A DNA stretch of 40,142 nt. Origin: a virus. The stretch is from the UHGV virus genome UHGV-0061378; one strand, written 5' to 3'. Shown here piece by piece: positions 21,387 to 38,854 of this stretch (positions are counted from its first letter, which is position 1; the number at the start of each line of letters is the position of its first letter). The position numbers and the translations under genes are program-made. Under the pieces are notes generated by a model that worked only from the letters and a program-made list of their open reading frames with translations, made no database searches and was not told where the DNA came from.

Positions 21387-21557
21387 ATCCTGGTATTTGT
21401 AATGACTGGCTCTTATTTCAACGCAGCCCCTTACCGCGCGCCAGATGCTCAATATCAAGCATCAGCAATGAGATGTTTAATCTGGATTCACTCCAGAAGT
21501 GATCACCACCCTGTCTACAGAGCCAGATGTGAAGGATGATGAGTAAAATTATCGCTA

Positions 21558-22498: not shown

Positions 22499-22805
22499 CT
22501 TCTACTCCGGCTTTTTTAGCAGCGAAGCGTTTGATAAGCGAACCAATCGAGTCAGTACCGATGTAGCCGATGAACACGCTTGTTATATAAGCGAGATTGC
22601 TACTTAGTCCGGCGAAGTCGAGAAGGTCACGAATGAACCAGGCGATAATGGCGCACATCGTTGCGTCGATTACTGTTTTTGTAAACGCACCGCCATTATA
22701 TCTGCCGCGAAGGTACGCCATTGCAAACGCAAGGATTGCCCCGATGCCTTGTTCCTTTGCCGCGAGAATGGCGGCTAACAGGTCATGTTTTTCTGGCATC
22801 TTCAT
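22482..22805 (-). CDS. S: Holin/antiholin, lambda S-type with dual-start motif
   Basis: 107 aa [39 protein letters not shown]..., near-identical to lambda S; Met1 and Met3 both present. Confidence 0.93.
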
Positions 22806-23336
22806 GTCTTACCCCCAATAAGGGGATTTGCTCTATTTAATTAGGAATAAGGTCGATTACTGATAGAACAAATCCAGGCTACTGTGTTTAGTAATCAGAT
22901 TTGTTCGTGACCGATATGCACGGGCAAAACGGCATGAGGTTGTTAGCGCAACCTCCTGCCACCCACTTTCACGAAGGTCATGTGTAGAAAGCCGCAGCAT
23001 AACTATCACTGATGAATTCAGGATAGCCAGTGGCTACGGCCCAGTTTGGGTTGTGGCGGTCGGTGCTGAACTCCGACTTAATGACGATAGGCGTGTACCG
23101 ACGCCTCGTTTTACTTCCTCCGCTTTCACGGCTTCACCCTAGACCAGCTTTACGAAATCCTCGTAAACCTAACCGCGGCAGATATGACCGGCACGGTGTG
23201 CCATATCACGGACCGGCGGGTGTCTCGTTCACCTGATTAACGCATCAGCCTGCGTATTCACCACAACGATAAGAGCACTGCGCGGCACCTTTCACCAATT
23301 CCGCGAGGTCTGCGGGTTCAATGCTCTTACCTGTTG

Positions 23337-23393
23337 TGCAAACAAAAAAGCCACCGTTGCAACTTAAGAGTCACTAACGGCAGCTTACCCTCT
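23337..23393 (-). terminator. Late-operon leader terminator region (lambda tR'-like)
   Basis: Minus strand ...GCAACGGTGGCTTTTTTGTTTGCACAACAGGTAAGAGCATTGA parallels the remembered lambda tR' tail; the hairpin is imperfect, so boundaries are approximate. Confidence 0.45.
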
Positions 23394-23401
23394 AATTATG
23401 G

Positions 23402-23920
23402 CTAAATGGCTAATTGCATGTCAAGGTTTTTAACAGCAACATGCTTAACTTTCTCAACACGTTTACGCATTTTGAAAGCATTTTGCATTGGTTGGTACAA
23501 AACAAATAATGACGCTTTCAGGATGTCGTCAATTTCGTTTCTACAGGTTGCCAGTGAAGGTTTTCTCCATCCCTCGCCACCACGTCCACACATCTTGCGT
23601 GGCTTTGCAGTCGCGTGATAGTAGGATGCAATTGCTCGCTTAGATGAACCATGAGCGTAGTAGCTGAGGAGGATGCCAAAGGCTTTTTTGTCAATGTACA
23701 TGACGGAATCAACGACCTGAGAAATCAACATTCCATCATCATCATTGCACATTGGCCTTGTCATAACTCTTCCCGGCTCTACGCTCTCCATGAACTTCGC
23801 TATTACGCTGCTCATGCGCTTTTCCAGACGACCTGAATAAACCCATGCTCCCCACAGTTCAAGCCAGCCATTCAGCCACTCGTGCTGCTCTTTGGTGAGG
23901 TTTAGTTCTCTTATGCTCAT
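23402..23920 (-). CDS. Late gene antiterminator, Q-like (P22 gp23 type)
   Basis: 172 aa with ...WLNGWLELWGAWVYSGRLEKRMSSVIAKFMES...RPMCNDDDGMLISQVVDS..., resembling remembered P22 gp23; directly upstream of the late leader. Confidence 0.8.
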   Translation of the reverse strand: MSIRELNLTKEQHEWLNGWLELWGAWVYSGRLEKRMSSVIAKFMESVEPGRVMTRPMCNDDDGMLISQVVDSVMYIDKKAFGILLSYYAHGSSKRAIASYYHATAKPRKMCGRGGEGWRKPSLATCRNEIDDILKASLFVLYQPMQNAFKMRKRVEKVKHVAVKNLDMQLAI

Positions 23921-24105
23921 CGTCTTCCTCTCTTGCCCTGTTTGACCATCAGGACGCCGTTAACTATTACGTGACGCTCACCTTTGCTGTCTCGGTTGTA
24001 CTTGAGCACTGTTCCTCTTGCACAGGAAAGCATCCTCGCCACTTCGGTCTGATTGCCTCGTGTCTGGATAAGAAGCTCTGGTATCGTTTGAATTGTGGCG
24101 TTCAT
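23917..24105 (-). CDS. ninH: NinH-like DNA-binding protein
   Basis: 62 aa ...IPELLIQTRGNQTEVARMLSCARGTVLKY...HVIVNGVLMV resembles lambda NinH; ATGA coupling on both sides. Confidence 0.75.
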   Translation of the reverse strand: MNATIQTIPELLIQTRGNQTEVARMLSCARGTVLKYNRDSKGERHVIVNGVLMVKQGKRGRR

Positions 24106-24464
24106 ACGCTCTCCAGTTCGGTGATTTTTATTCCAAGCCTTCCGCCTGGTGCTTTCACGCCACGAATTACGCGAATGTCATCGAATTGCTCGTCGTCTTC
24201 CGCAAATCCGGCGTGGATAAGTGAGTCGAGTAAACCCTTCAGGATGTTATCGAGGTCGCGGCGGCGGGAGTCTGGAACGTCTGCGATGACTTTGATGCGG
24301 AGTCGTGATTTGGTGAAAATGTCTAACTTGAGTTGGCGGATGATTTTCTGAACGTCTTTTCGGTATTTCTGGCCTTTATCGCTTATGTAATATTGGCTTC
24401 CCCGTCTTCGCCAGTAGGTATTCACCGATGGAGGGTATGGAAGCACAAACTGATATTCGTTCAT
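24102..24464 (-). CDS. rusA: RusA-family Holliday junction resolvase
   Basis: 120 aa MNEYQFVLPYPPSVNTYWRRRG... with acidic residues near the C-terminus. Confidence 0.8.
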   Translation of the reverse strand: MNEYQFVLPYPPSVNTYWRRRGSQYYISDKGQKYRKDVQKIIRQLKLDIFTKSRLRIKVIADVPDSRRRDLDNILKGLLDSLIHAGFAEDDEQFDDIRVIRGVKAPGGRLGIKITELESV

Positions 24465-24751
24465 GGCTTAATCTTCCCCTCCTTCAGCAGTATCGCCTGC
24501 GTCCTGATCACGCCTTCGAGGTGGTAAAGTCTGGCGTCTTTGTTGTCGAGGTTATGGGTGCGTCGGTCGATTTCATCGTGACACGCGCTACAAGCCCATG
24601 CGCCGATCAGGTCGTCAGGCTTCATTCCCGTTCCGCAAATTCCAGCCATCCGGTAATGTGCCAGAACTGTAGTTTCAGGATTGCCATTGCATACGCCGTA
24701 AATACGTACCTGACATTCTCTGCCGCGTGCTTCTTTGCGTAGATTGGCCAT
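24461..24751 (-). CDS. YbcO-like (DUF1364) Cys-rich putative nuclease
   Basis: 96 aa with Cys/His motifs (CQV...C...C...CSACH), same size as the remembered DLP12 YbcO. Confidence 0.6.
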   Translation of the reverse strand: MANLRKEARGRECQVRIYGVCNGNPETTVLAHYRMAGICGTGMKPDDLIGAWACSACHDEIDRRTHNLDNKDARLYHLEGVIRTQAILLKEGKIKP

Positions 24752-25473
24752 TAAGCAGCCTCCCCTGTTACTTTCAGCATTCCGTTATCGAGCAGCTTTC
24801 TGGTCAGCCGCTGTTGACCACGCCCGGTGATTTTTGTGGTGAACGATATCTGTATTCCGTGATTTGTGTTGACCGCTGTTTCTTTCACTGTGAAATAGCC
24901 GCGCTCCATATATTCCTGCATTGGCACATTGCGCCGGGAACCTGAAGCAATAAGGATTTTGTGATCGCGCATCCACGCAAACAGTTTGTTTGGACCAATT
25001 CCAACAACCTTTGCAAAGTTTCCAATCAAAATTCCACTGGCCTCGCCAACGCGATCGGCAAACTCAACTTTAGGTGCGGCAATTGCGAGCTGGTTTTCCA
25101 GTTGCATTTTCTGCTCAGCAAGATCAGCAGCAAGGCGCAACGCTTCTGGTAGCGTTTTGGGGATATTAACCGCAGCTTCTTCAAGCTCTCGCCAACGGTC
25201 AACAAGACGAGCGGTGAATTCCGGCGACAACTGGGCAACGACAATAATGCTGTCGCGCTTACCTTGTTCGCCTTCGAAGACGTAAGCCTCGACACTACGG
25301 CGCAGTCCTAAGTTATTGATTTTTTCGAAAACCTGCAATGCAGGAAGTTGAATAACTCCAGATTTAGCAAGGCGCTCTATTGATATTTTTACGTTATCTG
25401 GACGACTTCCCACCAACTCAGCGATTTCAATGCTTGTCATTTTGATGGCATTGCCATTTATTAACTCATTCAT
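24751..25473 (-). CDS. Rha-family regulatory protein with C-terminal KilA-C/ANT-like domain
   Basis: 240 aa; N-terminal ...MTSIEIAELVGSRPDNVKISIERLAKSGV... is Rha-like. Confidence 0.7.
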   Translation of the reverse strand: MNELINGNAIKMTSIEIAELVGSRPDNVKISIERLAKSGVIQLPALQVFEKINNLGLRRSVEAYVFEGEQGKRDSIIVVAQLSPEFTARLVDRWRELEEAAVNIPKTLPEALRLAADLAEQKMQLENQLAIAAPKVEFADRVGEASGILIGNFAKVVGIGPNKLFAWMRDHKILIASGSRRNVPMQEYMERGYFTVKETAVNTNHGIQISFTTKITGRGQQRLTRKLLDNGMLKVTGEAA

Positions 25474-25636
25474 CGTCTTCTTCCTCGTACATTGAGCTAT
25501 TCGGATCGCTCATCAGTTCTGCGCAGCAATCGGAGCACACGTGAACTTCCAGCACATGCAGCTTCTGACCGCAATTAGCGCACGTTAAAGCCCGCTCGAC
25601 GCTTTCTTGTTCGTAACTTCGATTTGGGTCAATCAC
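25466..25636 (-). CDS. ninF: NinF-like zinc-finger protein
   Basis: Hand-translated 56-aa ORF absent from the track (under 60 aa): [56 protein letters not shown]; GTG start overlaps the ninE stop (GTGA). Resembles remembered lambda NinF. Confidence 0.6.
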
Positions 25637-25815
25637 CTTGTATTCCTCGCACGTTCTCTAAGCCACCGGATATCCCACAGGTGAGCCGTGTAGTTGAAGG
25701 TTTTTACGTCAGATTCTTTTGGGATTGGCTTGCGTTTATTTCTGGAGCGTTTCGTTGGAAGGTATTTGCAGTTTTCGCAGATGATGTCGGTGATACTTCG
25801 TCGCTGTCGCCTCAT
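25633..25815 (-). CDS. ninE: NinE-like protein
   Basis: 60 aa [60 protein letters not shown]; start coupled to the methylase stop (ATGA). Confidence 0.6.
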
Positions 25816-26339
25816 GCCGCCCTCCTGACGCCCTGCCCGATCGCCATCAATGCCGCTTTGGATACGGTAGTAAACATCCGTCGAGGACTGATGAACGGTC
25901 GCCAAATCAGCAGCATGGAACCTTTGCTGTTTCCCTTCTTCTCCAGCCCTGTCGATGGTTCGATAAAATTAATCCGTCCATCAGTGATAATACGAACTTC
26001 GTCAACACTCTCCAGAGCCTTGCTGAACCATCCGACAGACATATCCTCTGGCACAAGCATCACTACCGTCTGTCGCTGTTGTATACACTGCTCAGCGGCT
26101 TTTTCCACCCACGGCCTGATATTGCTGTACGGTGGGTTATTCCAGATTGCACCGTGGCTTACCCACTCAGAATTGAGCGCGTCGTCGGCCTCAGTTAGCC
26201 AGTGAGCACACAGAGCATTTTTGTCGCTCGCTGCCGAATCCAGCCAGAATCCAAACTCAATATCCAGTGCATCAAAAAGCCAAAGCGGCGTTTGCCAGCA
26301 GTCCTTGTCGTGTGCTGGCGTATTTGATTTGATAGTCAT
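25812..26339 (-). CDS. DNA N6-adenine methyltransferase (phage Dam family)
   Basis: 175 aa from ATG 26339 ([26 protein letters not shown]...IWNNPPYSN...), carrying the NPPY catalytic motif; start coupled to the ninB stop. Confidence 0.8.
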
Positions 26340-26776
26340 GCAGCCCGATCTCCCCATCGCGCTTTCCATTCGAGAGCCAGTCGCGCTTCGTCTGACCACT
26401 TAACGCCACGCTCTGTACCGAATGCCTGTATAAGCTCTAATAGCTCCGCAAATTCGCTTACACGCATCCTGCTGGTTGACTGGCCTATTACCACAAAGCC
26501 ATTCCCGGCAAGGTTAGGAACAACGTCCTGCTGCTTTAATGCTGCGGTAAACACACACTTCCAGCTTTCTGCATCCAGCCAGCGCCCATGCCATTCAACC
26601 TGACGAGAGACGTCACCTAAGCAGGCCCATAGCTTCCTGTTTTGGTCTAAGCTGCGGTTGCGTTCCTGAATGGTTACTACGATTGGTTTGGTTGGGTCTG
26701 GAAGGATTTGCTGCACTGCGTGAATAGCGTTTTGCTGATGTGCTGGAGATCGAATTTCAAAGGTTAGTTTTTTCAT
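26336..26776 (-). CDS. ninB: NinB (Orf) recombination mediator
   Basis: 146 aa MKKLTFEIRSPAHQQNAIHAVQQILPDPTKPIVVTIQERNRSLDQNRKLWACLGDV..., near-identical to remembered lambda NinB. Confidence 0.92.
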   Translation of the reverse strand: MKKLTFEIRSPAHQQNAIHAVQQILPDPTKPIVVTIQERNRSLDQNRKLWACLGDVSRQVEWHGRWLDAESWKCVFTAALKQQDVVPNLAGNGFVVIGQSTSRMRVSEFAELLELIQAFGTERGVKWSDEARLALEWKARWGDRAA

Positions 26777-26969
26777 GACTCCCCTCTCTAACAGATTTCA
26801 GGTTATTCCACTCCGTTACCGCACTGCGATAATTCGCGGCCGCCACAGCGGCATGGTTAGCGCAGTAGATTTGGCACCCGTTCTCCATGTCGAATATTGT
26901 CGGTGATTTTCCGCATTTACATTTTTTGGCATGCGGTGCGTCTGAACACATTCCGTTAACGGTGTCCAC
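26757..26969 (-). CDS. Small Cys-rich hypothetical protein
   Basis: 70-aa ORF, GTG start 6 nt after GAGGGGG; 3' end overlaps ninB by 20 nt. Confidence 0.45.
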   Translation of the reverse strand: MDTVNGMCSDAPHAKKCKCGKSPTIFDMENGCQIYCANHAAVAAANYRSAVTEWNNLKSVREGSHEKTNL

Positions 26970-26994
26970 CAGGATCCCCCTCGTTCTTAATCCA

Positions 26995-27024
26995 ATAAAA
27001 AAGGGCTACTGTGTAAATAGCCCC
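26995..27024 (-). terminator. Rho-independent terminator after the helicase gene (lambda tR2 position)
   Basis: Minus strand GGGCTA-(loop)-TAGCCC followed by TTTTTTATT. Confidence 0.75.
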
Positions 27025-27050
27025 TGTTATTAGCTCAGTGATGTAGATGG

Positions 27051-28427
27051 TCATACGTCAGCCCCTTGTGCATATCGTCTGCCACGTGCAGCGGGTGCAT
27101 TTGATGCTGTGCAAATCTGTCTGGCTTCATCCTGGTCACATGCAACAAAGTGTCCGTTGCAGAACCGCTGGTAAACCGTACCAAGTGAGCCAAAACGGTT
27201 TTTCGTCACAATGATTTCAGCAAATGGTGCGGCGCTACTGTTCTCGTCATATACCGCTTCCCGATAGAGCATGATGATTGAGTCTGCGTCCTGTTCAATG
27301 CTTCCTGAATCACGCAAATCTGCGTTTGTCGGGCGTTTGTTTGGTCGCTTCTCAACATCGCGCGAAAGCTGACTCAGGGAGATAACAGGCGTTTTCAGGT
27401 CTTTCGCCATCGCCTTCAGGCTTCCGGAGATGTGAGCAATTGCGAGGTCGTTGCGGTCTGCTTTCGGCTTCTCAATCAGGCCAAGATAATCCGCCATGAT
27501 GAGTGAGAGGTTTGGATTTTCCTGTTTGTGCCGTTCTGCGATTGAGCGTATTTCTTCGACCGATAACCGCGAGGCATCGACTACCCATACATCCAAATCT
27601 GCAAGCTGACTCATGCCGTTAGCAACACGCGCCCAGCCTTCGTCATCCATCGATGCAGGATTTCGCAGCACGCTAACCGACATCCTCCCGGCGTTGGCGA
27701 TGCTTCGCTCTGCAATCTGCAATGCGCTCATTTCCATCGAGAAAATCAACACTCCGCGCCGAACGTCAGAACCAGGGATAACGCGGCTTGCAACGCCTTC
27801 GGCAATCTTCAGCGCCAGCTCGGTTTTCCCCATACCAGGACGAGCGGCGATAATCACCAGGTCTTCCGCGTTCATCCCCCCGGTGATAGCGTCAAGTTCT
27901 TCGATTCCGGTCTTCAGGGTATCGGACTCTTCTCCGTTCCTCAGACGCCTGTCAAGCGTGTCAGTGTAGTCAGTAATGATTTCCCCTAACCGTACAGGTT
28001 TAACCTCGTCACGGGGCTTTCTGATGGCTGAAAGACGCTTTACAAGCTCATCCATCGCCTGACTCGATGCGTCGATGGTTCCGCTCTGAATTGGTTCACG
28101 CATTTCATCCATGATTTCCAGCACCAGACGGCGGTGATAGTTATCCGCGACCATTCCGGCATATCCCTTCAGGTTTGCGGCACTCGGGCAGTTTTTGCTG
28201 GTCATCAGGATTGACGTGAAATGCTCCTCTCCGCACGCCTCGGCAACCATCAGCGCGTCGATTAGGTTTCTGTTTCGCGCCTGCTTGCGGATAACCTCGA
28301 AGGCTTTCCGGTAGAGCGGAATTGAAAACGCTTCCGGCTCCAGCGTTGCCAGAACGTCACTGGCGGTTGGTGTTAATCCACCAATCAGCAGGCCACCGAT
28401 AACGCTCGCTTCGATATCCTGTCTCAT
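27051..28427 (-). CDS. Replicative DNA helicase, DnaB-like
   Basis: 458 aa with Walker A ([15 protein letters not shown]), ...IIMLYRE... and the usual DnaB-family layout; start coupled to the O-like stop (ATGA). Confidence 0.88.
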
Positions 28428-29371
28428 GCAATCCCCCTGTCTGCAAACTTCCCTTCCCGAACTCCCGTTAACGAGTCTTCTCTCAGCAGGTAATCAAAAT
28501 CAGCCGTCCAGCCCGTGTCGTTGTCTCCGAAGTAAAACGGCTTGGCCTGATGCACAAACGCCCTGACATACGCTCTGAAACCGTCCACGTTTGGCGTTTT
28601 CAGTTGCGGGATGATTTTCTTCAGGCGGCGTTTGCGTTTCTCGTTGACTGCAACAGCATGTGGAAGTCTGTCACCGACTTCGGTGTTGTAGGCGTTCAGG
28701 AAGGATTCGTAGTCGATTCGTTCTGCCTTGCGACGTTCAGGTTTAACCTGCCCATCGCCTCCCCCATTGGGGGGTAGGGGGGTATTATTTATATTCTTGT
28801 TAATACCTTCTTGTTCATGATGTGCGGTTGTTTGTGCGGCTTCATGTGCGCTTTCATGTGCGGCATGTGCGCTGAAAGCCGCGCCATTACTGGCTTTGTC
28901 ATGTGCGGCATCATGTGCGGTTGTTTGTGCGGCTTCATGTGCGGGTAAATTGTCCATTTTTTGAGCATACTCATGGTAATTTGTGATGGTGATCACACGA
29001 CCTTTTTGCTTCTCTCCATCAATGGAGATCATCCCCTCTTTCACAAAAACCTGAAGCATCCGCTCAACCTGATCACGGCTTGCTGGCTTGCCATGTCTGT
29101 CGCATAACTGAAGACCTAAATCAGCTGCTGTCACAACCAGTTGACCGGGTTGCAGATGCCATTCATGACCTTTGAAATTCGCTTTGTATGGCTTTCTGGC
29201 GGCATTCAGGAGAAGGTTTTCCCACAGGGTGCGAAGATAAACATCTTTCGCCCATGACTGTTTCAGAATGCTCCGGTACAACGGAATGTAACCAGTTTTC
29301 TGGTTCTCCATCCTGTTGCTCCTGCGCTCGTGTGCGGCGCTGAAATCGTAGATTTTTGCTGTATTGCTCAT
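28424..29371 (-). CDS. Replication initiation protein, O-like, containing ori iterons
   Basis: 315 aa; N-terminus [10 protein letters not shown]... resembles lambda O (MTNTAKILNF...); His/Ala-rich internal repeats are encoded by the iteron array. Confidence 0.8.
28780..28945. repeat. Origin of replication: iteron array (TCATGTGCGG-type units, two ~32-bp copies) with adjacent AT-rich tract
   Basis: Direct repeats catgtgcgg/tttgtgcgg read many times at 28815..28945, with an AT-rich stretch at 28780..28815, all inside the O-like gene. Confidence 0.8.
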
Positions 29372-29373
29372 AA

Positions 29374-29646
29374 CTACCTGCCTTGACGAAAGACCTTAAG
29401 AACATCGTTAAACTGACTTACGGATATGTCTTCTTTGAGAAGCTTTTCCAGAAATGCGTTTGGAATGAACGTATATCCCTCCTCTTTTGGTAGAGACGGG
29501 AGCAACGCCCTCGCCTCAGCTTTCAGAAGCTCAGTTCTGGCAACTTTCACAAAAGAGATTTGAGTTCTTTCATCAATGGAACGAAGGAAGCGCAAACGCT
29601 TAGCTTCTTTGTGTGTATCAGGTGGATTAAAGCCTTTGTTTCGCAT
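29374..29646 (-). CDS. Hypothetical protein between cII and the O-like gene
   Basis: 90 aa from ATG 29646 with GAGGTAA SD; the track ORF 29374..29919 extends upstream over cII in another frame. Confidence 0.55.
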   Translation of the reverse strand: MRNKGFNPPDTHKEAKRLRFLRSIDERTQISFVKVARTELLKAEARALLPSLPKEEGYTFIPNAFLEKLLKEDISVSQFNDVLKVFRQGR

Positions 29647-29668
29647 ATAATTACCTCGCTGGATGTTG

Positions 29669-29962
29669 TTAAAATTCCATTTGTATTTGATTAGAACGCT
29701 CGGTTGCCGCCGGGCGTTTTTTATTGGTGAGAATCGAAGCAACTTGTCGTGCCAATCGAGCCATGTCGTCGTCAACGACACCCCATTCAAGAACAGCAAG
29801 CAGCATTGAGAACTTTGGAATCCAGTCCCTCTTCCACCTGCTGATCTGCGACTTATCAACTCCCACAGCTTCCGCTGTCTTCTCAGTTCCAAGCATTGCG
29901 ATTTTGTTAAGCAACGCACTCTCGATTCTTAGAGCCTCGTTGCGTTTGTTTGCACGAACCAT
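29669..29962 (-). CDS. cII: Transcriptional activator CII
   Basis: 97 aa MVRANKRNEALRIESALLNKIAMLGTEKTAEAVGVDKSQISRWKRDWIPKFSMLLAVLEWGVVDDDMARLARQVASILTNKKRPAATERSNQIQMEF, near-identical to remembered lambda CII. Confidence 0.93.
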   Translation of the reverse strand: MVRANKRNEALRIESALLNKIAMLGTEKTAEAVGVDKSQISRWKRDWIPKFSMLLAVLEWGVVDDDMARLARQVASILTNKKRPAATERSNQIQMEF

Positions 29963-30021
29963 ATGTAAGTATTTCCTTAACAAATAAGAAGTTATGCGCA
30001 TCAACTTATGCGCGTTGTATT

Positions 30022-30064
30022 CCCGCATTTCGGCGGGAATGAGGACCATGACTGTTAAAGAGCG
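30022..30064 (-). promoter_or_regulatory. nutR (boxA CGCTCTTTAACA plus boxB hairpin CCCGCCGAAATGCGGG)
   Basis: Between cro and cII on the minus strand; same boxA/boxB pair as nutL. Confidence 0.75.
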
Positions 30065-30070
30065 GTGTTA

Positions 30071-30265
30071 CTATTTGTTTTTCTTGTTGCTTGGGAAAGG
30101 ACGAACTTCCTCTCCAATCACACTGCCATCAGGCTTTACCGTAACCATGATGTTACGGCCTGCCAGAATGGCCTTGCTGATAGCGCACTGGATTACACCA
30201 AAGTCACTGGCTGCTTTAGCCTGTCCATGGATTTTGGCGTAATCGGCAAGTGTCATTCGAATCAT
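30071..30265 (-). CDS. cro: Cro repressor
   Basis: 64 aa [64 protein letters not shown], resembling lambda Cro; GGAGAG SD. Confidence 0.88.
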
Positions 30266-30292
30266 ATGCACTCTCCGTTATTAACCATGAAC

Positions 30293-30365
30293 AAAGAATA
30301 CTACAGGTATTCAAAGCAATCAATACTCAGGGTATTTTTAGTTTAAGTACCTTAGCTATTAGAAT
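30293..30365. promoter_or_regulatory. OR region: two operator palindromes (GAATAC-N5-GTATTC at 30296..30312; AATAC-N5-GTATT at 30322..30336) with pR and pRM
   Basis: Palindromes read directly. Putative pR on minus (-35 TTGATT, 17-nt spacer, -10 TATTCT); putative pRM -10 TAGAAT about 7 nt before the cI ATG, implying a leaderless cI mRNA as in lambda. Confidence 0.7.
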
Positions 30366-30371
30366 TAAGCT

Positions 30372-31088
30372 ATGGAAAATAAAAAATCACTGACGACAGA
30401 ACAGCTCGAAGACGCTAAGCGGCTTAAGGCTTTGTATGAGTCAAAAAAGAAAGAATTGGGAATAACCCAATACTCAATCGCTGATGAACTGGGTATCACC
30501 CAAGGAGCGGTAGGGCATTATCTTAATGGCAGAAACGCGCTAAACGTTGAGGTTGCATCTGGTTTTGCACGATTGTTGCAAGTCTCAATTGCTGATTTTA
30601 GCCAGTCAATTGCTGCCAAGGTTGCAGAACAGGCAGAAAGCCTTAAGAGCGATGCCAACGTAAGGTATGCAGGGGAATACAGAGCAGGAAAGAGGTATCC
30701 GGTGTTAAGCAGTATCCAGGCTGGCTCGTGGTGTGAAGCATGCGAACCATACACCATTAAAGACATAGATGTTTGGCTTGAGTCTGACGCGCATATTCAA
30801 GGTAATGCGTTTTGGCTTAAAGTGGAAGGTGATTCAATGACGGCACCGGTTGGGTTAAGCATTCCAGAGGGAACATTCGTTCTTTTCGATACCGGAAGGG
30901 AGGCGATCAACGGCAGCTTGGTCATAGCAAAACTTTCTGACTCTAACGAAGCAACATTCAAGAAGCTGATAATCGACGGCGGAAATAAATACCTCAAGGG
31001 ACTTAATCCTGCATGGCCTCTCGTGCCAATCAATGGAAACTGCAAGATTATAGGCGTTGCAATTGAGACAAAACTAAGGCTGGTTTGA
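30372..31088 (+). CDS. cI: CI repressor (HTH plus LexA-like S24 peptidase domain)
   Basis: 238 aa; N-terminal HTH (…ELGITQYSIADELGITQGAVGHYLNG…) and C-terminal S24 region (…EGDSM…KL…); divergent from cro. Confidence 0.9.
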   Translation: MENKKSLTTEQLEDAKRLKALYESKKKELGITQYSIADELGITQGAVGHYLNGRNALNVEVASGFARLLQVSIADFSQSIAAKVAEQAESLKSDANVRYAGEYRAGKRYPVLSSIQAGSWCEACEPYTIKDIDVWLESDAHIQGNAFWLKVEGDSMTAPVGLSIPEGTFVLFDTGREAINGSLVIAKLSDSNEATFKKLIIDGGNKYLKGLNPAWPLVPINGNCKIIGVAIETKLRLV

Positions 31089-31105
31089 TCACGCAAGGGG
31101 CGATT

Positions 31106-31474
31106 ATGGTTGGAACCGCTATAGCAAGCTTTTTTGGGATGTTGGCAATCTCGACAATTTACGGCTTAGCGCATGCTTTTATTGCGAAATCTCTATCAGA
31201 AAAAATAAGTCAGGCTTGGGCGCATAGATCAGCTCGTTTCATGATTCTAGTGATCATAGCAATACAAGGGATATCTGCATTTATCCTCTATGGTTCAAGC
31301 TTATACCTGTTGTATCAAGGCGCGACATTTACGCCTTACACCAGTGATTACGGAACGCTATACGATGGTAGTGAAGACATCTCTATGGCTTGGATCGTCT
31401 TTGGTTTATCTATGGCCGTGTCTGTTGTAGCAGACATCATTAAGGTAATTCTCGTCTTAACCTTCGCTGACTAA
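31106..31474 (+). CDS. Small polytopic membrane protein downstream of cI (rexAB position)
   Basis: 122 aa from ATG 31106 (AAGGGG SD), 18 nt after the cI stop with no terminator between; 3-4 hydrophobic segments. Confidence 0.6.
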   Translation: MVGTAIASFFGMLAISTIYGLAHAFIAKSLSEKISQAWAHRSARFMILVIIAIQGISAFILYGSSLYLLYQGATFTPYTSDYGTLYDGSEDISMAWIVFGLSMAVSVVADIIKVILVLTFAD

Positions 31475-31560
31475 CCCATAATCCCGGCAGCAATAGCTAT
31501 CGGGATCCACTTCACATATCCCGCATAAAAAACACTGAACAAGCAGACACAGAAAAAATA

Positions 31561-31650
31561 AATATCCTTTGTATTCATTTGCTTATCATTATTTCACCAA
31601 AAATAAATACCTTGGGTATTTACACAATAAAATACCTACAGTATTCTTTA
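31561..31650. promoter_or_regulatory. OL/pL region: operator palindromes AATAC-N5-GTATT (31606..31620, 31631..31645, degenerate 31561..31575) with putative pL
   Basis: Same half-site consensus as OR; putative pL -35 TTTACA (31619..31624) and -10 TATTCT. Confidence 0.65.
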
Positions 31651-31692
31651 GCCATCAGCAGGACGCTGGTAGCCAAACGGAACAGATTGGCA

Positions 31693-31733
31693 GGCTCTTT
31701 AACATTGATGGGATTGTCCCGCCGAAATGCGGG
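31693..31733 (+). promoter_or_regulatory. nutL (boxA GGCTCTTTAACA plus boxB hairpin CCCGCCGAAATGCGGG)
   Basis: Downstream of pL and upstream of N; boxB is identical to the nutR copy. Confidence 0.75.
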
Positions 31734-32049
31734 AACCAAAGAGTAGTTGGCTTTGGGGTGACGTGAAGTGCAGCTGCACGACGGCAACCGGAAGATAAGC
31801 ACCCGGCGCGTCACCGCCAAAGTCAATTCCATAGGCGTTATGCAGCCGCCACCATATTCAAGAAAGCTGCACAAGAGGTAGGAGGATTTATGTGAATACT
31901 TACATTCAATTGAGAGATTAATTAAATAGAACTGATCGAGCAGAGTCCATAAAGGCTCATAAATGCTCTTCCATCCCCGTCTAATTGGCGGGGAAGGAAA
32001 CCACTTTGCAATCACTATCAATTCCAAAGTTGTTTCATCGGAGGTCAAC

Positions 32050-32349
32050 ATGACAGTAGTCATTACATATCTGGCTGACGATAACGCCAGAAATCGCCGC
32101 AGAGCACGCAGACAGGCTCAACGTGAGCAGGCAATGCAAGAGCAGCGACTGGCGCGAAAAATTGCGCTAAAGCTCTCTGGTTGCGTCAGAGCAGACAAAG
32201 CAGCATCACTCGGAAGCCTTCGCTGCAAGAAGGCAGAAGAAGTCGAGCGTAAACAGAACCGTATTTACTACCGCAAGCCACGCAGTGAAATTGGTGTGAC
32301 TTGTGTTGGTCGCCAGAAAATGAAATTAGGCAGCAAACCACTTATTTGA
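32050..32349 (+). CDS. N: Antiterminator N-like protein
   Basis: 99 aa from ATG 32050 (GGAGG SD) with arginine-rich motif DNARNRRRARRQAQREQA near the N-terminus; first gene after pL/nutL. Confidence 0.75.
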   Translation: MTVVITYLADDNARNRRRARRQAQREQAMQEQRLARKIALKLSGCVRADKAASLGSLRCKKAEEVERKQNRIYYRKPRSEIGVTCVGRQKMKLGSKPLI

Positions 32350-32360
32350 GAGGAATTAAT

Positions 32361-32984
32361 ATGTCATCAATCCGCTTAACTACGAGAATGAAAGAGAAAA
32401 TCGCTCGTAACGCTTTAATTAAGTCTGGGGTTTTCACTGAACTTGAAGAAGTAATAAAGTTAAAGAACCAGCTTGCACTTGACGCCAGAGTTATTGCGTT
32501 TGGCGGTAAAAAGAAAACTGAGGAAGTGGATCAGTTATCATCCAAGTTAGTAGCTATAAGTGAAGAACTTGAAAAGATGGGATGTTCATTTTACTCATAC
32601 GATGTTCGTTCTACTTCGATTTATCTGACTGTATCTGGAAGAAGGGTTGGCTGGCATTCATACGGAAAAGACGGCAACGGTGAAGATATATTGCTCCCCA
32701 CCCCAGAAAAAGATAAATGCATGTTTGACGCAGAACACGAAATAACAAAAAGGTTTGATGAAATCTGCGCATTGCAACAAAAACTTGAAGCCAAGAAAAA
32801 GGATATCGAATCAAATGTATTGGCTGCTTTGAACTCAGTCACAACAGTTAAGCGACTTATTGAAGTTTGGCCTGAAAGCAAAGAATTGCTACCAAAAGAA
32901 GCAGATAAAGCAAGTACAGCACTTCCTGCTTTACGGGTAGAAGATTTGAATAAGATGATTGGACTTCCTCCCGAGGCCGCATAG
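32361..32984 (+). CDS. Hypothetical protein (ral/sieB/gene-17 position)
   Basis: 207 aa from ATG 32361 with GAGAGG SD, immediately after N; no recognisable motif. Confidence 0.6.
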   Translation: MSSIRLTTRMKEKIARNALIKSGVFTELEEVIKLKNQLALDARVIAFGGKKKTEEVDQLSSKLVAISEELEKMGCSFYSYDVRSTSIYLTVSGRRVGWHSYGKDGNGEDILLPTPEKDKCMFDAEHEITKRFDEICALQQKLEAKKKDIESNVLAALNSVTTVKRLIEVWPESKELLPKEADKASTALPALRVEDLNKMIGLPPEAA

Positions 32985-33021
32985 TCGGCCTTTATTTTTG
33001 GCATAAACAACAGAGGCTAAC

Positions 33022-33318
33022 ATGGAATTTAAAGGTACTGAAGGTAAGTGGGAAATAATGATGGATGGCGATGAGATTAAAATCATCCAGGCAGACTCAC
33101 TTGAAAATGGCGCAGGCTGGCGTTCGTATATTGCAATCTGTGAGGAAGTTCAATGCATTGAAGATGCCAATCTAATAGCGGCAGCACCTGACCTTCTCGA
33201 AGCACTTCAGTTATTACTTAAGCAATCCAAAAATAGAACAACGACAACATATCCAGAATGGTATGGAGCTGTTAATAAAGGTCTTGCAGCAATCAGAAAA
33301 GCTCTTGGGGATAAGTAA
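33022..33318 (+). CDS. Hypothetical protein
   Basis: 98-aa ORF with AGAGG SD in the pL operon. Confidence 0.55.
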   Translation: MEFKGTEGKWEIMMDGDEIKIIQADSLENGAGWRSYIAICEEVQCIEDANLIAAAPDLLEALQLLLKQSKNRTTTTYPEWYGAVNKGLAAIRKALGDK

Positions 33319-33506
33319 TGAAAGTAAAAATAACTGCTTCTAATACCAGTTTTGTTAGTGTTGGTGATATTACAGAAGTAATGACAAACCATGATGGAAC
33401 ACAAGTTATGTGGTCTGATTTTTGTAAAAGATATGAGCGAGTCGCTTGGTGTAAACTCGTATGGGGCGTCGAATACGAAGAATTACCTGAAATGCATGAC
33501 GAATAA
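33318..33506 (+). CDS. Hypothetical protein
   Basis: 62-aa ORF whose start overlaps the preceding stop (TAATG). Confidence 0.45.
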   Translation: MKVKITASNTSFVSVGDITEVMTNHDGTQVMWSDFCKRYERVAWCKLVWGVEYEELPEMHDE

Positions 33507-33512
33507 GCACTG

Positions 33513-33539
33513 TGTATTCATTCCAACGAGTGAATACAC
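33513..33539. repeat. 9-bp perfect inverted repeat GTGTATTCA-N9-TGAATACAC
   Basis: Read directly; arms contain the operator half-site GTATTC/GAATAC. Confidence 0.6.
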
Positions 33540-33601
33540 GGAGCAATGTCGCTCGTAATTAAACAGGAGCCGACTTGTTCTGATTATTGGAAATCTTCTT
33601 T

Positions 33602-33628
33602 GCCCTCCAGTGTGAGGGCATTTTTTTG
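33602..33628 (+). terminator. Rho-independent terminator inside the pL operon (tL1-like)
   Basis: GCCCTC-CAGTGT-GAGGGC followed by ATTTTTTTG. Confidence 0.75.
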
Positions 33629-33639
33629 ACGGAGGAAAT

Positions 33640-33951
33640 ATGAAATTACGTGTCTGGCATATCCCGCAAGTACCTATGAAACCGTTCATTGCAGAAGTGG
33701 CAAGTGTTGAAGAGGGTGTTCGCCTGATGGACGCACTGGCTGATTATGACGCCTTTCAGTATGACAACAACATCAAGCCTGATTACTGCAATGCTAACGG
33801 CCTTGAGATGTGGGATGAGAGCCTTACCGATGAAGATTTATCAGAGATGGGGCTTACTGATCGCTGGGTGGATTGGTACAGCGAATGCCAATATTACGAC
33901 GACCCACGTAAATATCTCGAAAGCCTGAAAGAAGAGACATCAGCCGCCTAA
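33640..33951 (+). CDS. Acidic hypothetical protein
   Basis: 103 aa, GGAGG SD, strongly D/E-rich with several W/Y. Confidence 0.6.
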   Translation: MKLRVWHIPQVPMKPFIAEVASVEEGVRLMDALADYDAFQYDNNIKPDYCNANGLEMWDESLTDEDLSEMGLTDRWVDWYSECQYYDDPRKYLESLKEETSAA

Positions 33952-34026
33952 GCGCGGCTTTACCGCATACCAATAACGCTTCACTTGAGGCGTTTTCGTT
34001 ATGCAATCAAACAGAAGGAGCATCCT

Positions 34027-34197
34027 ATGCAACAGTTCGCTATTGCAGGGGCGGCATCGGTTCGCCCTTTCAACCCGATTTTATCGGTACAGCATTCACG
34101 AAAAAATATTTTAACCGGAGCAGACTTTAAACAACCAAGAATGAAAAGTTTGCTCGAAAAGCTTTGGGATATTTTGAAACAACAAGGCCGTCCATGA
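34027..34197 (+). CDS. Possible CIII-like protein
   Basis: 56 aa from ATG 34027 (AAGGAG SD): MQQFAIAGAAS...MKSLLEKLWDILKQQGRP loosely resembles lambda CIII (MQYAIAGWP...LIDILNQPG). Confidence 0.4.
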   Translation: MQQFAIAGAASVRPFNPILSVQHSRKNILTGADFKQPRMKSLLEKLWDILKQQGRP

Positions 34198-34364
34198 GTT
34201 TTACGGATAACTGGTCAGACGAAGAATTCATTCGTCAGATAAAAGAATTAATCGGCAACGAAGGAGATATTCATGTCACTTGCAACCACAGTGAAGGAGA
34301 GCAAGTTACAGAGACGCATGTACACGCAGCAGGCGTTAATGTATCGCCAGAAGGGGGATCGTGA
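34194..34364 (+). CDS. Small hypothetical protein (kil position)
   Basis: 56 aa; ATG overlaps the previous stop (ATGA). Confidence 0.4.
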   Translation: MSFTDNWSDEEFIRQIKELIGNEGDIHVTCNHSEGEQVTETHVHAAGVNVSPEGGS

Positions 34365-34453
34365 AGGTGTTCGCGTATTTTTAAATGCGGCAAAGACTGA
34401 AGTATTAAATCAGCGTTATTTCCTTGGGCCATGTCCATTCTGAGAACAAACAT

Positions 34454-35059
34454 ATGAGCAAAGAATTTTACGCAAGACTGGCAGCTATTCAGGAGAATCT
34501 GAACGCGCCAAAAAATCAGTACAACTCATTCGGTAAATATAAATACAGAAGCTGCGAAGATATTCTTGAGGGTGTTAAGCCGTTACTGAATGGCCTGTTT
34601 TTATCAATCAGCGATGAAGTTGTGTTGATTGGTGATCGGTATTACGTGAAAGCAACGGCAACTATTACTGATGGCGAAAACAGTCATAAAGCAACCGCTC
34701 TTGCACGAGAGGAAGAAAGCAAGAAAGGAATGGATTCTGCACAAGTTACGGGAGCTACAAGCTCTTATGCACGCAAGTATTGCCTCAATGGTTTATTCGG
34801 CATTGATGATGCGAAAGATGCAGATACAGACGAGCATAAACATCAGCAGAACGCAGCAGCAAAGCAATCAAAACCATCACCTACATCTGAACAGGTTCTA
34901 AAAGCATTCACTGACGCAGCAATGCAGAAAAACACCTTAGAAGAGCTTAAACAGGCGTTCGCCAAAGCGTGGAAGATGCTCGAAGGCACACCGGAGCAGC
35001 ACAAAGCGCAGGACGTTTACAACATCAGACGAGACGAATTAGAAGGAGCGGCTGCTTAA
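34454..35059 (+). CDS. erf: Erf single-strand annealing protein
   Basis: 201 aa MSKEFYARLAAIQENLNAPKNQYNSFGKYKYRSCEDILEGVKPLL..., closely matching remembered P22 Erf. Confidence 0.9.
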   Translation: MSKEFYARLAAIQENLNAPKNQYNSFGKYKYRSCEDILEGVKPLLNGLFLSISDEVVLIGDRYYVKATATITDGENSHKATALAREEESKKGMDSAQVTGATSSYARKYCLNGLFGIDDAKDADTDEHKHQQNAAAKQSKPSPTSEQVLKAFTDAAMQKNTLEELKQAFAKAWKMLEGTPEQHKAQDVYNIRRDELEGAAA

Positions 35060-35442
35060 TGGCACATTCGATTACTGTAAGACTAAACAAGCCCGCAAGA
35101 GAGTTTCAGGCCGGGGAAAATATCGGATTCAACATCCGTGCTGGCGTTCAGTATTACGATCGCCAGACAAAAAAGAAAGAATGGACAAACTACAGCGCCG
35201 TTGTATTTGCCAAGCCGGGAGCGCAAGCGGATTACTACCGTAGTGTTCTTGTTGAAGGTGGCATTGTGGAAATTACCGGAGAAAACATCAGGGTTGATGT
35301 TTATCAGGGGCAAAATGGTCAATCAATCACTCTTGAATTACTGAATGCAAAGATTGGATTTGCAGCTTCAGGAAATGGCCCGCAGCAGCAAAGCAGTAAC
35401 CAGCAGAACACTCCTGTATACGACGATTCCATCCCATTCTGA
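35059..35442 (+). CDS. SSB-like protein with host-SSB-type C-terminal tail (DDSIPF)
   Basis: 127 aa; ATG overlaps the erf stop (TAATG); Gly/Gln-rich linker followed by an acidic tip ...PVYDDSIPF like the E. coli SSB tail. Confidence 0.7.
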   Translation: MAHSITVRLNKPAREFQAGENIGFNIRAGVQYYDRQTKKKEWTNYSAVVFAKPGAQADYYRSVLVEGGIVEITGENIRVDVYQGQNGQSITLELLNAKIGFAASGNGPQQQSSNQQNTPVYDDSIPF

Positions 35443-35465
35443 TTTAGAAAAATAAGGATTCCATT

Positions 35466-35762
35466 ATGCCAGCGCCTCTGTATGGTGCGGATGACGCGCG
35501 CCGCTGTTCCGGCAATTCCGTATCGGAGGTGCTGGATAAATTCAGAAAAAACTACGACCTGATAATGTCGCTACCGCAGGAAACGAAAGAGGAAAAGGAA
35601 TTTCGCCACTGTATATGGCTTGCAGAGAAAGAAGAACGAGAGCGAATTTACCAGACATCAATCAGACCATTCCGCAAAGCCACATATACCCACTTCCCTG
35701 AATATATCGACCCGCGCCTGCGTAATTACCGCTCACGCTATGGCGCTATCAGTAATGACTGA
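35466..35762 (+). CDS. Abc2-like anti-RecBCD protein
   Basis: 98 aa [57 protein letters not shown]..., matching my recollection of P22 Abc2; sits after erf as in P22. Confidence 0.65.
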
Positions 35763-35772
35763 GGAATTTACC

Positions 35773-35937
35773 ATGAGAGGACTTGCATACAATCCCGGCA
35801 TTCTTCCGGCAGAAATGATTATTCGCCAACGCGTAAAGCCAATGCCATCGAGAGAGGAATTACTTAAGCGAGAGAGTTTCGGTTCTGTTAATGACAACAA
35901 ATATCTGAATGCGATGTTGCGGAGTGGGAAGAAATGA
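35773..35937 (+). CDS. Small hypothetical protein
   Basis: 54 aa from ATG 35773 (GAGGA SD); stop overlaps the next start. Confidence 0.4.
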
Positions 35938-36404
35938 AACAAATGTCACTAATTGAGATGGATGGTTTTCTGAAAGGTAAATGCATTCCAAGTGATTTAA
36001 AGGTTAACGAAACAAACGCTGAATATCTGGTGCGTAAGTTCGGTGAGCTTGAATCAAAACTGGAAACGGCGTTGCGGGAGTGTCGTTCTGCTGGAATCAC
36101 GATTGATAACCTTGAGGCCAAGTGCACGGCGCTGGCAGCGGAGAGTGCGGGGCTGAAAAAGTTCTGTGAAGACGCAGCGTTTGATGCTGATTATGAGTCA
36201 GAACTTCTTGGAGAACGCGGTGGATTTGTTGATGGGCTTAGCTTGGTAAAAACCCCAGCCACCGACACTTTCCTGGATGAAGTGCGGGCGCAGGGGGTGG
36301 AGATGTTCTCAGAAAAATTCGGAGGTGGCACTCCGCTTTCCAATATGGTCAAAGAGGTTGCGGCTGATTTTGCCGCGAAACTTCGCAAAGGAGGCAACCA
36401 GTGA
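35934..36404 (+). CDS. Hypothetical protein
   Basis: 156-aa ORF, coupled on both sides. Confidence 0.55.
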
Positions 36405-37009
36405 GCGAGATTAACTATCAGGCACTGCGTGAGGCGGCACAGAACGCGAAAAATTTAGGTGGGATTAAGAATTACAAGCGAGGCGAGCAAGCTGTTGCCG
36501 AATTTAAGTCCTTGATAACGCCACATATTGTGCTGGCGCTTCTGGAAGAACGGGAAAGAAACCTGCAATACATCAAACGCCGTGACCAGGAGAACGAGGA
36601 TATTGCGCTAACGGTAGGGAAGCTGCGAGTTGAGCTTGAGGAGACAAAATCAAAACTCAACGAGCAGCGAGAGTATTACGAAGGTGTTATCGCGGATGGA
36701 AGTAAACGCATAGCAGAACTGGAAAAACAATGCGCCGAATGGGAGCGAAAAGCATTAAGTAACTTTGAAGAGTGTGCTGCGATGGCTGAACGTATCGAAG
36801 AGATGAGTAAACAAAGTTGCGAAGCTCGGGAGCGTGATTTGTTTGAATCATGGGTAATGCATTCAATTTGTATTTCCAAATCGACACTTGAAGGATTGCG
36901 CACCGAAACCGGATACCGTAACGCAACCTTATCAGGCACAGACTTCAACCGAATGTGGGAACAATGGAAATCTATCCGCGCCGCTGGCATTCGCATCAAA
37001 GGAGAGTGA
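36401..37009 (+). CDS. Ead/Ea22-like coiled-coil protein
   Basis: 202 aa, GTG start after AAAGGAGG; N-terminus [21 protein letters not shown]... typical of lambdoid Ea22-like proteins. Confidence 0.65.
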   Translation: MSEINYQALREAAQNAKNLGGIKNYKRGEQAVAEFKSLITPHIVLALLEERERNLQYIKRRDQENEDIALTVGKLRVELEETKSKLNEQREYYEGVIADGSKRIAELEKQCAEWERKALSNFEECAAMAERIEEMSKQSCEARERDLFESWVMHSICISKSTLEGLRTETGYRNATLSGTDFNRMWEQWKSIRAAGIRIKGE

Positions 37010-37010
37010 T

Positions 37011-37199
37011 ATGAACGGACAAATATCAATTATTCGCCCTGGAACTACTGACGAAGAAATAAGGGTGATTATCCGCCTTGCGATGGGTAGAACAATAACT
37101 GCTCTCATTACTCCTGAAAATCTCGCATTAGCATTAACCGGAAAGTCAGACCTGCCAGTAGAGCTAAAGCTGCGAAATGTTGAGATTAAGGTGAAATAG
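37011..37199 (+). CDS. Small hypothetical protein
   Basis: 62 aa from ATG 37011 with AAAGGAGAG SD. Confidence 0.5.
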   Translation: MNGQISIIRPGTTDEEIRVIIRLAMGRTITALITPENLALALTGKSDLPVELKLRNVEIKVK

Positions 37200-37201
37200 T
37201 T

Positions 37202-37621
37202 ATGAATACTCTTACCAAAGAACGCCTGCTGAAAATCAAGCAGTGGCGCGATACATACGGACCGGGTAGCAACGTTGTGCTTCCAGCTGAAGAAGCGGAA
37301 GAACTGGCAAGGATTGCACTGGCATCGCTGGAAGCAGAGCCTATTGGTGAAGTTTCAGAGAAGCGATACGGCCTTATTATGGATGGAATGGTAGACCTTG
37401 GCGGGAAATCAACTTATCGCATCATTAAGGGAGAAAAAGCGATGAAGTTGTTGCCGCTGGGGACGAAGTTTTATACCGCACCGCCAGTGCCTGTAGTGCC
37501 GAAAGAAAAACCAATGCCTAACCCTTTTAGCATGTACGCGGTTGATGCTGTTGCCGCTATTGCAGAGGTGAGAGGCTGGAACGCCTGCCGCGCCGCCATG
37601 CTTCAGGGTAAAGGAGAGTGA
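37202..37621 (+). CDS. Hypothetical protein (C-terminal RAAMLQG motif)
   Basis: 139-aa ORF; its 3' end carries one copy of a 23-bp direct repeat. Confidence 0.55.
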   Translation: MNTLTKERLLKIKQWRDTYGPGSNVVLPAEEAEELARIALASLEAEPIGEVSEKRYGLIMDGMVDLGGKSTYRIIKGEKAMKLLPLGTKFYTAPPVPVVPKEKPMPNPFSMYAVDAVAAIAEVRGWNACRAAMLQGKGE

Positions 37622-37622
37622 T

Positions 37623-38216
37623 ATGACCACTATTACCAATAAAAAACAGTATCCCAGCGAGCAATATCTTAATGAGCTGATCACCAACATGGAGTTTGCT
37701 GCAAGGGCACCAGTTGAAGTCGTGAGAGCGATGGCAGCAGAGCTACAGAAGCGGCGCGAAGCTGATAGCGCAGAACCAGTTGCTTATATTTTCAAACATC
37801 CGGCCGGAAAATTATTCTGGGCTTTAACGGATGAAAGCAATAAAAATCAATCGGACGTTATTTCTGTTTATGCTGCCCCACCTGCACCGATATCGTCGGA
37901 GGCCATTGAAAACGCAATTGAATACATCCGCAGTATCGCTTTTCACATCGATGAAAACGATTATCACGGCAAACATATTGCGTATTTCATGCGACAAGCA
38001 TTGGCCTGGCTGGAAGGTCATTCATGCCGCGATGACAGCCAGGGCAAATCCGATAATTCACCATTGCCGCGCTACCAGGTTATCGAATTAACAATGCTGG
38101 TTAAACAATTGGTCAGCCAACTGAAAAAAGCAAAACCTGATTGCAAATTACCAGATAGGGCGATGGATTATCTTTTGCGGAACGGACTGGTAAGTGTGGA
38201 GGGTGTTTTACGATGA
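37623..38216 (+). CDS. Hypothetical protein
   Basis: 197-aa ORF, tightly packed between neighbours. Confidence 0.55.
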   Translation: MTTITNKKQYPSEQYLNELITNMEFAARAPVEVVRAMAAELQKRREADSAEPVAYIFKHPAGKLFWALTDESNKNQSDVISVYAAPPAPISSEAIENAIEYIRSIAFHIDENDYHGKHIAYFMRQALAWLEGHSCRDDSQGKSDNSPLPRYQVIELTMLVKQLVSQLKKAKPDCKLPDRAMDYLLRNGLVSVEGVLR

Positions 38217-38854
38217 CCATTTCTACCAAAAAGCCTCTTTATGCTGAGGTTAACAATGTTCCTGATGATTATGAGTTCACTGACGAGGAACTAAACAGAA
38301 TTATTGCAGGTGATATGTTCACTCCTCGTCAGGACGCAATAATGGCACGGGAGATACAGAAACTCCGCGCCGCCATGCTTCAGGGTAGCCAACCTGTAAG
38401 CCAAACTTACAACTTGCCAGAATTAATCGAAGGCATGGAAGTTTCCATTGATGTAAGCACTTGTGATGCTGATTTAGGTAATCGCTATTTCGGTACCGTC
38501 ACCGAGGCGTCAGAACTTGATACAGCCAAGAATGGTTACATCCTCCTGGTTCAGGACGCAGAGCCAAACTTCGATATAAATGACAACTCTCCGGTAACTC
38601 CGGATGGTTGGGTTATAGTGCCGAAGAAACTAACCGCTGAGAACGGCGCTAAGGGTGTGCTATCCGGTGAATTTTCAGAAACGACGTTTATAAGCTGCCC
38701 GGAATGTTTTGGCGATGATGATTGCGATACCTGTGACGGTAGCGGGCGGATTGAAATTAAAGTACCAGTCACGTGGACGACCATAAAATCCATCTGGGAT
38801 AAAGGTATTGCGTATTTTGCAGCAGAACCGAGGCAGGAGGTTAACCGTGGCTAA
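38213..38854 (+). CDS. Hypothetical protein with C-terminal Cys cluster (internal RAAMLQG motif)
   Basis: 213-aa ORF; contains the second copy of the 23-bp repeat and a CPECFGDDDCDTCDGSG motif. Confidence 0.55.
   Translation: MTISTKKPLYAEVNNVPDDYEFTDEELNRIIAGDMFTPRQDAIMAREIQKLRAAMLQGSQPVSQTYNLPELIEGMEVSIDVSTCDADLGNRYFGTVTEASELDTAKNGYILLVQDAEPNFDINDNSPVTPDGWVIVPKKLTAENGAKGVLSGEFSETTFISCPECFGDDDCDTCDGSGRIEIKVPVTWTTIKSIWDKGIAYFAAEPRQEVNRG

Follow-up and report, generated by a model that had tools for sequence, protein, structure and literature searches.

The Nmad5 family ('nucleotide modification associated domain 5', Pfam PF18757) owes its name to an association with thymidine-hypermodification genes in phages other than the one studied here. 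The described genes closest to ours, namely mEp235_037, ORFs in the immunity regions of HK244 and HK542 and the homologues of Stx1a phages, match the Pfam model over its full length, are 95–97% identical at the DNA level and occupy the same slot in the pL operon after N (or N and Nun), with the same ribosome-binding site and trailing hairpin; in mEp235 the order is N, Nun, Nmad5, cIII, kil. More distant is the nmad5 gene of the Dhillonvirus phages (EP23p07), whose product is homologous in its C-terminal half (34% identity over ∼100 residues, E 2e-13) and shares the T-x-K-K/R-L...WPE...LN..G.P motifs, and which, like our gene, is dispensable. The Dhillonvirus protein differs in its length of 254 aa and its divergent, longer N-terminal half, and the gene differs in its setting, as it belongs to virulent siphophages in which it is paired with RusA in the head-gene region rather than placed in an early-left operon. 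In Shigella phage EP23 (locus L083, 2439–3797) a RusA-like resolvase and Nmad5 form a two-gene cassette that is embedded, on the opposite strand, within the head-morphogenesis genes. The Yuavirus members of the same Pfam family (M6, SN1 and PAE1) are 43–47% identical over the C-terminal 87 residues and lie beside genes for a thymidylate-synthase-like protein, rSAM and PLP enzymes and DNA polymerase, none of which occurs among the ORFs of the window that we scanned. In PAE1 the Nmad5 gene is found between an HNH gene and the thymidylate-synthase-like gene, near DNA polymerase, and the announcement of SN1 places aGPT-Pplase genes in a thymidine-hypermodification cassette within which Nmad5 is listed for the SN1/M6-like phages (PMC9476957). 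Lambda Ral, P22 gene 17 and SieB, finally, have only their early-left position near N and their dispensability in common with Nmad5, as there is no sequence relationship and a PHROG scan gives phrog_1965 only.

The window, by which we mean the whole 40,142-nucleotide stretch of UHGV virus genome UHGV-0061378, belongs to a lambdoid E. coli phage that is mosaic and P22-like, with CUS-3 and HF4s as its best partial matches, and in its right-hand part the lambda leftward (pL) direction corresponds to the + strand. On the – strand cII starts at 30049 and cro lies at 30071–30271, while cI (30372–31088) and a small membrane ORF (31085–31474, likely start 31106; phrog_6534, of unannotated function, E 3.6e-79) are on the + strand. 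A promoter-like site in the pL region (31619–31647) precedes an N-like antitermination gene (32050–32349, + strand; phrog_271, E 5e-36), and between the two a boxA-like GCTCTT followed by a hairpin (31964–31999, + strand; –22.2 kcal/mol, z –5.7) can be read as a putative nutL site. The Nmad5-family gene (32361–32984 including its TAG stop, + strand) begins with an ATG 11 nt past the stop codon of N, and its Shine-Dalgarno sequence GAGAGGA (32348–32354, 6 nt 5′ of the ATG) overlaps the last two bases of N's TGA stop. It is followed by two small ORFs of unannotated function (33022–33318 and 33318–33506, + strand; phrog_1273 and phrog_10407), a second terminator-like hairpin 3′ of these (33601–33620), a P22 gene-17 homologue (33640–33951, + strand; phrog_1510, annotated 'superinfection exclusion', E 4.6e-57) and then arf, erf, ssb and abc2. 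The true gene-17 homologue is thus a different ORF, located 650 nt downstream of the Nmad5 gene. The preliminary description, which had given the gene as a 207-codon ORF and as the first gene of the pL operon after N, holds on both counts.

To establish whether the ORF is a real gene we examined 26 unique near-identical alleles, in which the variable sites are distributed over the three codon positions as 28/25/55 with a dN/dS of ∼0.29. This excess at the third position together with the low dN/dS indicates that the 207-codon frame is a real gene under purifying selection. An ORF on the opposite strand (32621–33010, 129 aa) was ruled out as the true gene, as the third-position variation fits the + frame. 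The protein had been described as unassigned and without a recognisable motif, neither of which withstands a comparison with PF18757, as residues 4–203 align with model positions 1–206 of 206 (E 8.6e-71; score 238.7 bits, cut-off 27). Among the PHROGs it matches phrog_1965 (E 8.7e-82), whose function is annotated as unknown, and it has a weak match to the Pfam model YfjL_C (E 0.013, under the YfjL_C cut-off); NCBIfam has no model for it. The identical protein is already public and belongs to a cluster, formed at 90% identity, whose 2436 sequences come from E. coli and Salmonella and bear the NCBI name 'Nmad5 family putative nucleotide modification protein'. Judged by sequence, membership in Nmad5 appears solid, and the gene is one that is already catalogued in a named phage family, not a new kind, so that it is not a discovery as such. 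Neither Pfam nor PHROG relates it to a characterised housekeeping protein, the matches being phrog_1965 and Nmad5, which is itself uncharacterised.

The family is large: a library clustered at 50% identity contains 2297 of its representatives (E ≤ 0.001), and of the best 150 nearly all are stand-alone proteins of 190–220 aa that match over the full length. Copies with 95–97% DNA identity are carried by mEp235, HK542, HK244, Kapi1, APC_JM3.2 and many Stx1a and Stx2a phages. The carriers of the family include Stx-converting phages and common prophages of E. coli and Salmonella. The tblastn searches extend the hosts of family phages to Escherichia, Salmonella, Vibrio, Pseudomonas, Bordetella, Klebsiella and Edwardsiella, and a strict-pattern scan of genome contigs yielded 7 loci. 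In the literature on PF18757, phrog_1965 and mEp235 in connection with anti-defence we found nothing about the gene of the window.

In Stx2a phages an IS3-family element splits the Nmad5 gene after approximately codon 35. The split gene is present in the Stx2a-converting phage Stx2_EH1965 (locus L174, 1025–3021) and in ∼48 other Stx2a phage records; the insertion consists of orfA (108 aa) and orfB (296 aa) and leaves a C-terminal Nmad5 ORF of 152 aa. To judge from these sequences the gene is inactivated in the Stx2a prophage lineage that carries the element, and it follows that it is dispensable for prophage carriage. This agrees with the Dhillonvirus phages, in which deletion of nmad5 gives viable phage (PMC11846954).

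We compared the junctions of the gene in 81 close loci from IMG/VR. A conserved block starts ∼20 nt before the ATG with CTTATTTGAGAGGAATTAAT, which is present in all 81 loci (with one single-base variant) and is kept whatever the upstream sequence, and the block ends ∼30 nt past the stop codon with TCGGCCTTTATTTTTGGCATAAACAACAGA. At least five unrelated sequences adjoin it upstream and at least four downstream. As so many unrelated junctions flank the conserved block, the ribosome-binding site, the gene, a terminator-like hairpin and ∼20 nt beyond it (∼32341–33014, + strand) appear to move as one unit, a mosaic cassette. The hairpin (32973–32992, + strand) pairs GAGGCCG with CGGCCTT in a 7-bp stem that has G-T as its basal pair; its 5′ arm consists of the gene's last codons (E-A-A-stop), and together with the T-run TATTTTT it extends to 33001. 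It is modest (–11 kcal/mol, z –1.3) but is kept in 81 of 81 close loci, in some of which the stem or the T-run differs by a single base, and similar hairpins are also found 3′ of relatives with only 53–60% identity. Such hairpins trail the gene in 6 of 33 diverse clusters, compared with 4% of random windows. On the + strand the hairpin is the first terminator-like site after the pL region and it stands at the end of the gene, which suggests that N and the Nmad5 gene are probably co-transcribed before antitermination. Such immediate-early expression is not general, as the mEp235-type junction has a terminator-like hairpin directly before the gene. Apart from flanking genes there is no essential difference between the Nmad5 locus of the window and its mEp235, HK244, HK542 and Stx1a relatives; the ORFs at 33022–33506 are extra here. 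The junction with these ORFs downstream of the cassette occurs in 7 of the 81 close loci. Most close relatives do not have the two ORFs, and their cassette is joined straight to sequence near 33520.

To place the gene in a wider context we grouped 89 further loci into 33 clusters at 85% identity. In 8–9 of the 33 clusters the Nmad5 gene adjoins genes for a DUF2800 PD-(D/E)XK nuclease and an Enc34/T7-gp2.5-type SSB (PF10991), with a family-A DNA polymerase no more than three genes away in four of them, and in other clusters a DnaG-type primase or a DUF3799 nuclease is nearby; approximately half of the diverse loci have unannotated neighbours only. In 15 of the 33 clusters a CI-type repressor gene is found no more than 5 kb upstream in the same orientation, and five of these 15 have a recognisable N between repressor and Nmad5 gene, indicating that the promoter-proximal early-left position recurs. 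The 33 diverse relatives are found promoter-proximal in early-left operons or within replication/recombination modules. The N4-like phage FSL SP-058 encodes, in this order, DNA polymerase, ThyX, Nmad5 and, further on, SSB, and in ZRG1 the gene is located between terminase and portal. Among 63 E. coli loci the annealing proteins found together with the Nmad5 gene are phrog_1097 (37 loci), Erf with Arf (25) and RecT with a Mu-Gam-like protein (13). A fixed phage recombinase was ruled out as the partner, since these three different annealing-protein families co-occur with the gene.

If Nmad5 were a true component of base modification, it might act enzymatically or serve as an accessory subunit by which modification enzymes are directed to DNA. 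The homologues within or beside the thymidine-hypermodification cluster of the M6/SN1/PAE1-type Pseudomonas phages (PMC9476957) speak for such a role, as do the placement after ThyX in FSL SP-058 and the fact that the window itself encodes a Dam-type N6-adenine methyltransferase (25812–26399, – strand; PF05869, E 9.4e-65). However, ten ORFs of the window that were scanned against Pfam contain no hydroxymethylase, 5-hmU kinase, aGPT-Pplase, rSAM or PLP enzyme, and the Dam-type methyltransferase, the sole modification enzyme among them, belongs to another operon, the nin region, ∼6 kb away. The mEp235 protein is 97.6% identical to that of the window, and no methyltransferase or other modification enzyme is annotated in 20219–37595 of the mEp235 record, an interval that runs from the integrase through the early and lysis genes; on this ground the Dam methyltransferase was ruled out as a partner of Nmad5. 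Base-modification enzymes were likewise not seen in the neighbour clusters of the 33 diverse loci, the steps of the M6 pathway have been reconstituted in vitro with gp54, gp51, gp53 and gp52 and without Nmad5 (PMC8989533), and the protein has no recognisable catalytic fold or cofactor motif. A role in base modification therefore seems improbable to us, and the 'nucleotide modification' label is not supported for the gene of the window, which leaves its membership in the sequence family unaffected.

The AlphaFold2 model of the protein, built with a 38-sequence alignment, is confident (pLDDT 86.6, pTM 0.72) and shows a helical bundle with a beta-hairpin, composed of three long helices (residues 8–72), the hairpin (86–100), a long helix (127–158) and short C-terminal helices; with 207 aa, helices and one beta-hairpin it is the stand-alone, mainly alpha-helical protein of ∼200 aa that is typical of Nmad5. 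It has no solved structural relative, and we detected no catalytic domain in it. The conserved positions cluster in the last 45 residues, with T162, L166, W170, P171, E172, L176, P178, L196, N197, G201 and P203 unchanged throughout the 38-sequence alignment, which reaches down to 27% identity, and the C-terminal motifs of the family (T-x-K-K/R-L, W-P-E-x-x-E-L-x-P and L-N-x-x-I-G-x-P) are all present. The model is poor at residues 183–192 and 201–207, and a tail that is conserved yet not confidently folded may serve as a partner-binding or oligomerisation element. A beta-clamp-binding motif in this tail (D/Q-L-N-x-M-I) was considered and rejected on inspection of the alignment, as its position 4 is not hydrophobic, unlike in QL[SD]LF or QLxLxL. 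The N-terminal segment is basic and the protein as a whole near-neutral (pI 6.8), so that it is not an acidic DNA mimic of the Ocr/ArdA type.

The sole experimental link between the Nmad5 family and defence is indirect and comes from Dhillonvirus phages, in which mutants that escape the Tmn system carry K216E or K296E in 'nmad5' (Yamashita et al. 2025, PMC11846954). Reversion of the change restores sensitivity to Tmn, whereas deletion of nmad5 gives no escape and leaves sensitivity unchanged, and attempts to clone the gene failed, apparently due to toxicity (PMC11846954), which fits an action on a host process. In EP23 residue K216 lies in the context ...T-D-K-K(216)-L-I-K-A-W-P-E and aligns with R165 of the window protein, in the most conserved motif of the family and at a position that is basic in most members; this mapping assumes the 254-aa form with EP23-like numbering, the length being gap-free among the Dhillonvirus records listed.

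These data bear on the suggestion that Nmad5 is a counter-defence or host-takeover factor, that is, an early protein that would block or blind a host system, or alter what such a system senses, in the manner of ral, gene 17 and the abc2 gene of the same operon. The preliminary description had put the gene in a slot occupied in lambda and P22 by exclusion or anti-defence genes, and as to setting this is correct, since the gene has a promoter-proximal early position in a variable accessory stretch that it shares with a gene-17 homologue, and abc2 follows later in the same operon; nothing in our data shows that the protein has such a function. Further points in favour of counter-defence are the dispensable, moron-like and self-contained cassette with many junction types, and the K-to-E change that confers escape from Tmn at a residue aligned with R165 (PMC11846954). 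However, the deletion without effect on Tmn sensitivity argues that the wild-type protein is neither an inhibitor of Tmn nor its sole trigger, and the neutral pI is unlike that of DNA mimics. The PHROG scan of the protein returned no known anti-defence family, and PADLOC gave 0 families at E ≤ 1. Counter-defence genes evolve fast, and for such genes it would be unusual to find strongly conserved motifs, a sequence conservation that spans phages of Enterobacterales, Vibrio, Pseudomonas and Bordetella, and a structure match to a protein from an alphaproteobacterial phage; the family is also often embedded between SSB and DNA polymerase genes. Counter-defence is therefore possible but, on balance, rather unlikely. 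A prophage-expressed superinfection-exclusion or defence gene that guards the lysogen, like sieB or rex, is highly improbable. The earlier analogy with sieB is in its favour, together with a 2026 paper that lists an unspecified 'NMAD' among predicted, unvalidated defence domains (PMC13092281), but there is no + strand promoter-like site between pL and the gene, which should accordingly be repressed along with pL in the lysogen. The absence of a PADLOC match weighs against it as well, and most relatives belong to lytic phages or replication modules.

We favour the reading that the gene encodes an accessory, non-catalytic early protein or adaptor, which in this phage would be expressed with N and would act on a partner in DNA replication or recombination or on a conserved component of host DNA metabolism. 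We assign this a probability of roughly 0.4, and our confidence is at best on the low side of moderate because the functional part of the reading rests on gene neighbourhood and predicted structure. In such a model a stand-alone Nmad5-family protein, accessory and early and not a base-modification enzyme, would be made together with N before antitermination, and would then dock as a non-catalytic adaptor on a DNA replication/recombination or conserved host DNA-metabolism protein via its most conserved part, which comprises the T-x-K-[KR]-L...W-P-E...L-P block near the C-terminus and the L-N-x-x-I-G-x-P tail, for which the model is poor. The loci with unannotated neighbours only, about half of the diverse set, are a point against an adaptor, as is the position of the ZRG1 gene between terminase and portal, and a helical fold in which no active site is detected may also be compatible with an unrecognised enzyme.

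A broader form of the adaptor reading, which we put forward as a speculative and, as it stands, unlikely proposal, is that Nmad5 may be misnamed and may be a widespread early phage protein that docks on a conserved host replication/recombination component via its C-terminal WPE / LN..IG.P module, and is expressed as an immediate-early protein with N in lambdoid phages. Docking on a host component would explain why the gene either neighbours those for SSB and polymerase or opens an early operon, why it is apparently toxic when cloned and how one charge reversal in the T-x-K-[KR]-L motif could lead to escape from Tmn. As the 'nucleotide modification' label is unsupported by the contexts examined, knowledge of the binding partner of Nmad5 would correct a widely propagated annotation, and, with one member of the family genetically tied to Tmn escape, it could also reveal what Tmn senses.

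Several further features were noted in the course of the comparison. A recurrent module near the Nmad5 gene comprises a ∼300-aa protein (with no Pfam match, and absent in two of nine loci), the DUF2800 nuclease and the Enc34-type SSB; it is located upstream of Nmad5 in L093, L107, L109, L110, L118 and L128 and downstream in L091, L141 and L147, and four of the module loci continue with a family-A DNA polymerase no more than three genes further on. Both the nuclease and the SSB of this module terminate in an acidic tail of similar sequence, DDFDD[LV]SV. Within the window the Dam-type gene (25812–26399) overlaps the start of ninB (26336–26776), and no counterpart of it is annotated in the nin region of mEp235, a phage with the same Nmad5 gene. 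The membrane ORF at 31085–31474 (∼122 aa, with several hydrophobic segments), for which an NCBIfam search gave no match, begins at the stop codon of cI, the position of rexA/rexB in lambda, and is a candidate for a prophage-expressed protein that is co-transcribed with the repressor. Further along the pL operon, the + strand ORFs 36401–37009, 37202–37621, 37623–38216 and 38213–38854 match several overlapping PHROGs of unannotated function (phrog_250, phrog_368, phrog_60 and phrog_660 across 36401–38854), and this run of ORFs looks like a mosaic, partly paralogous family of ea-region proteins.
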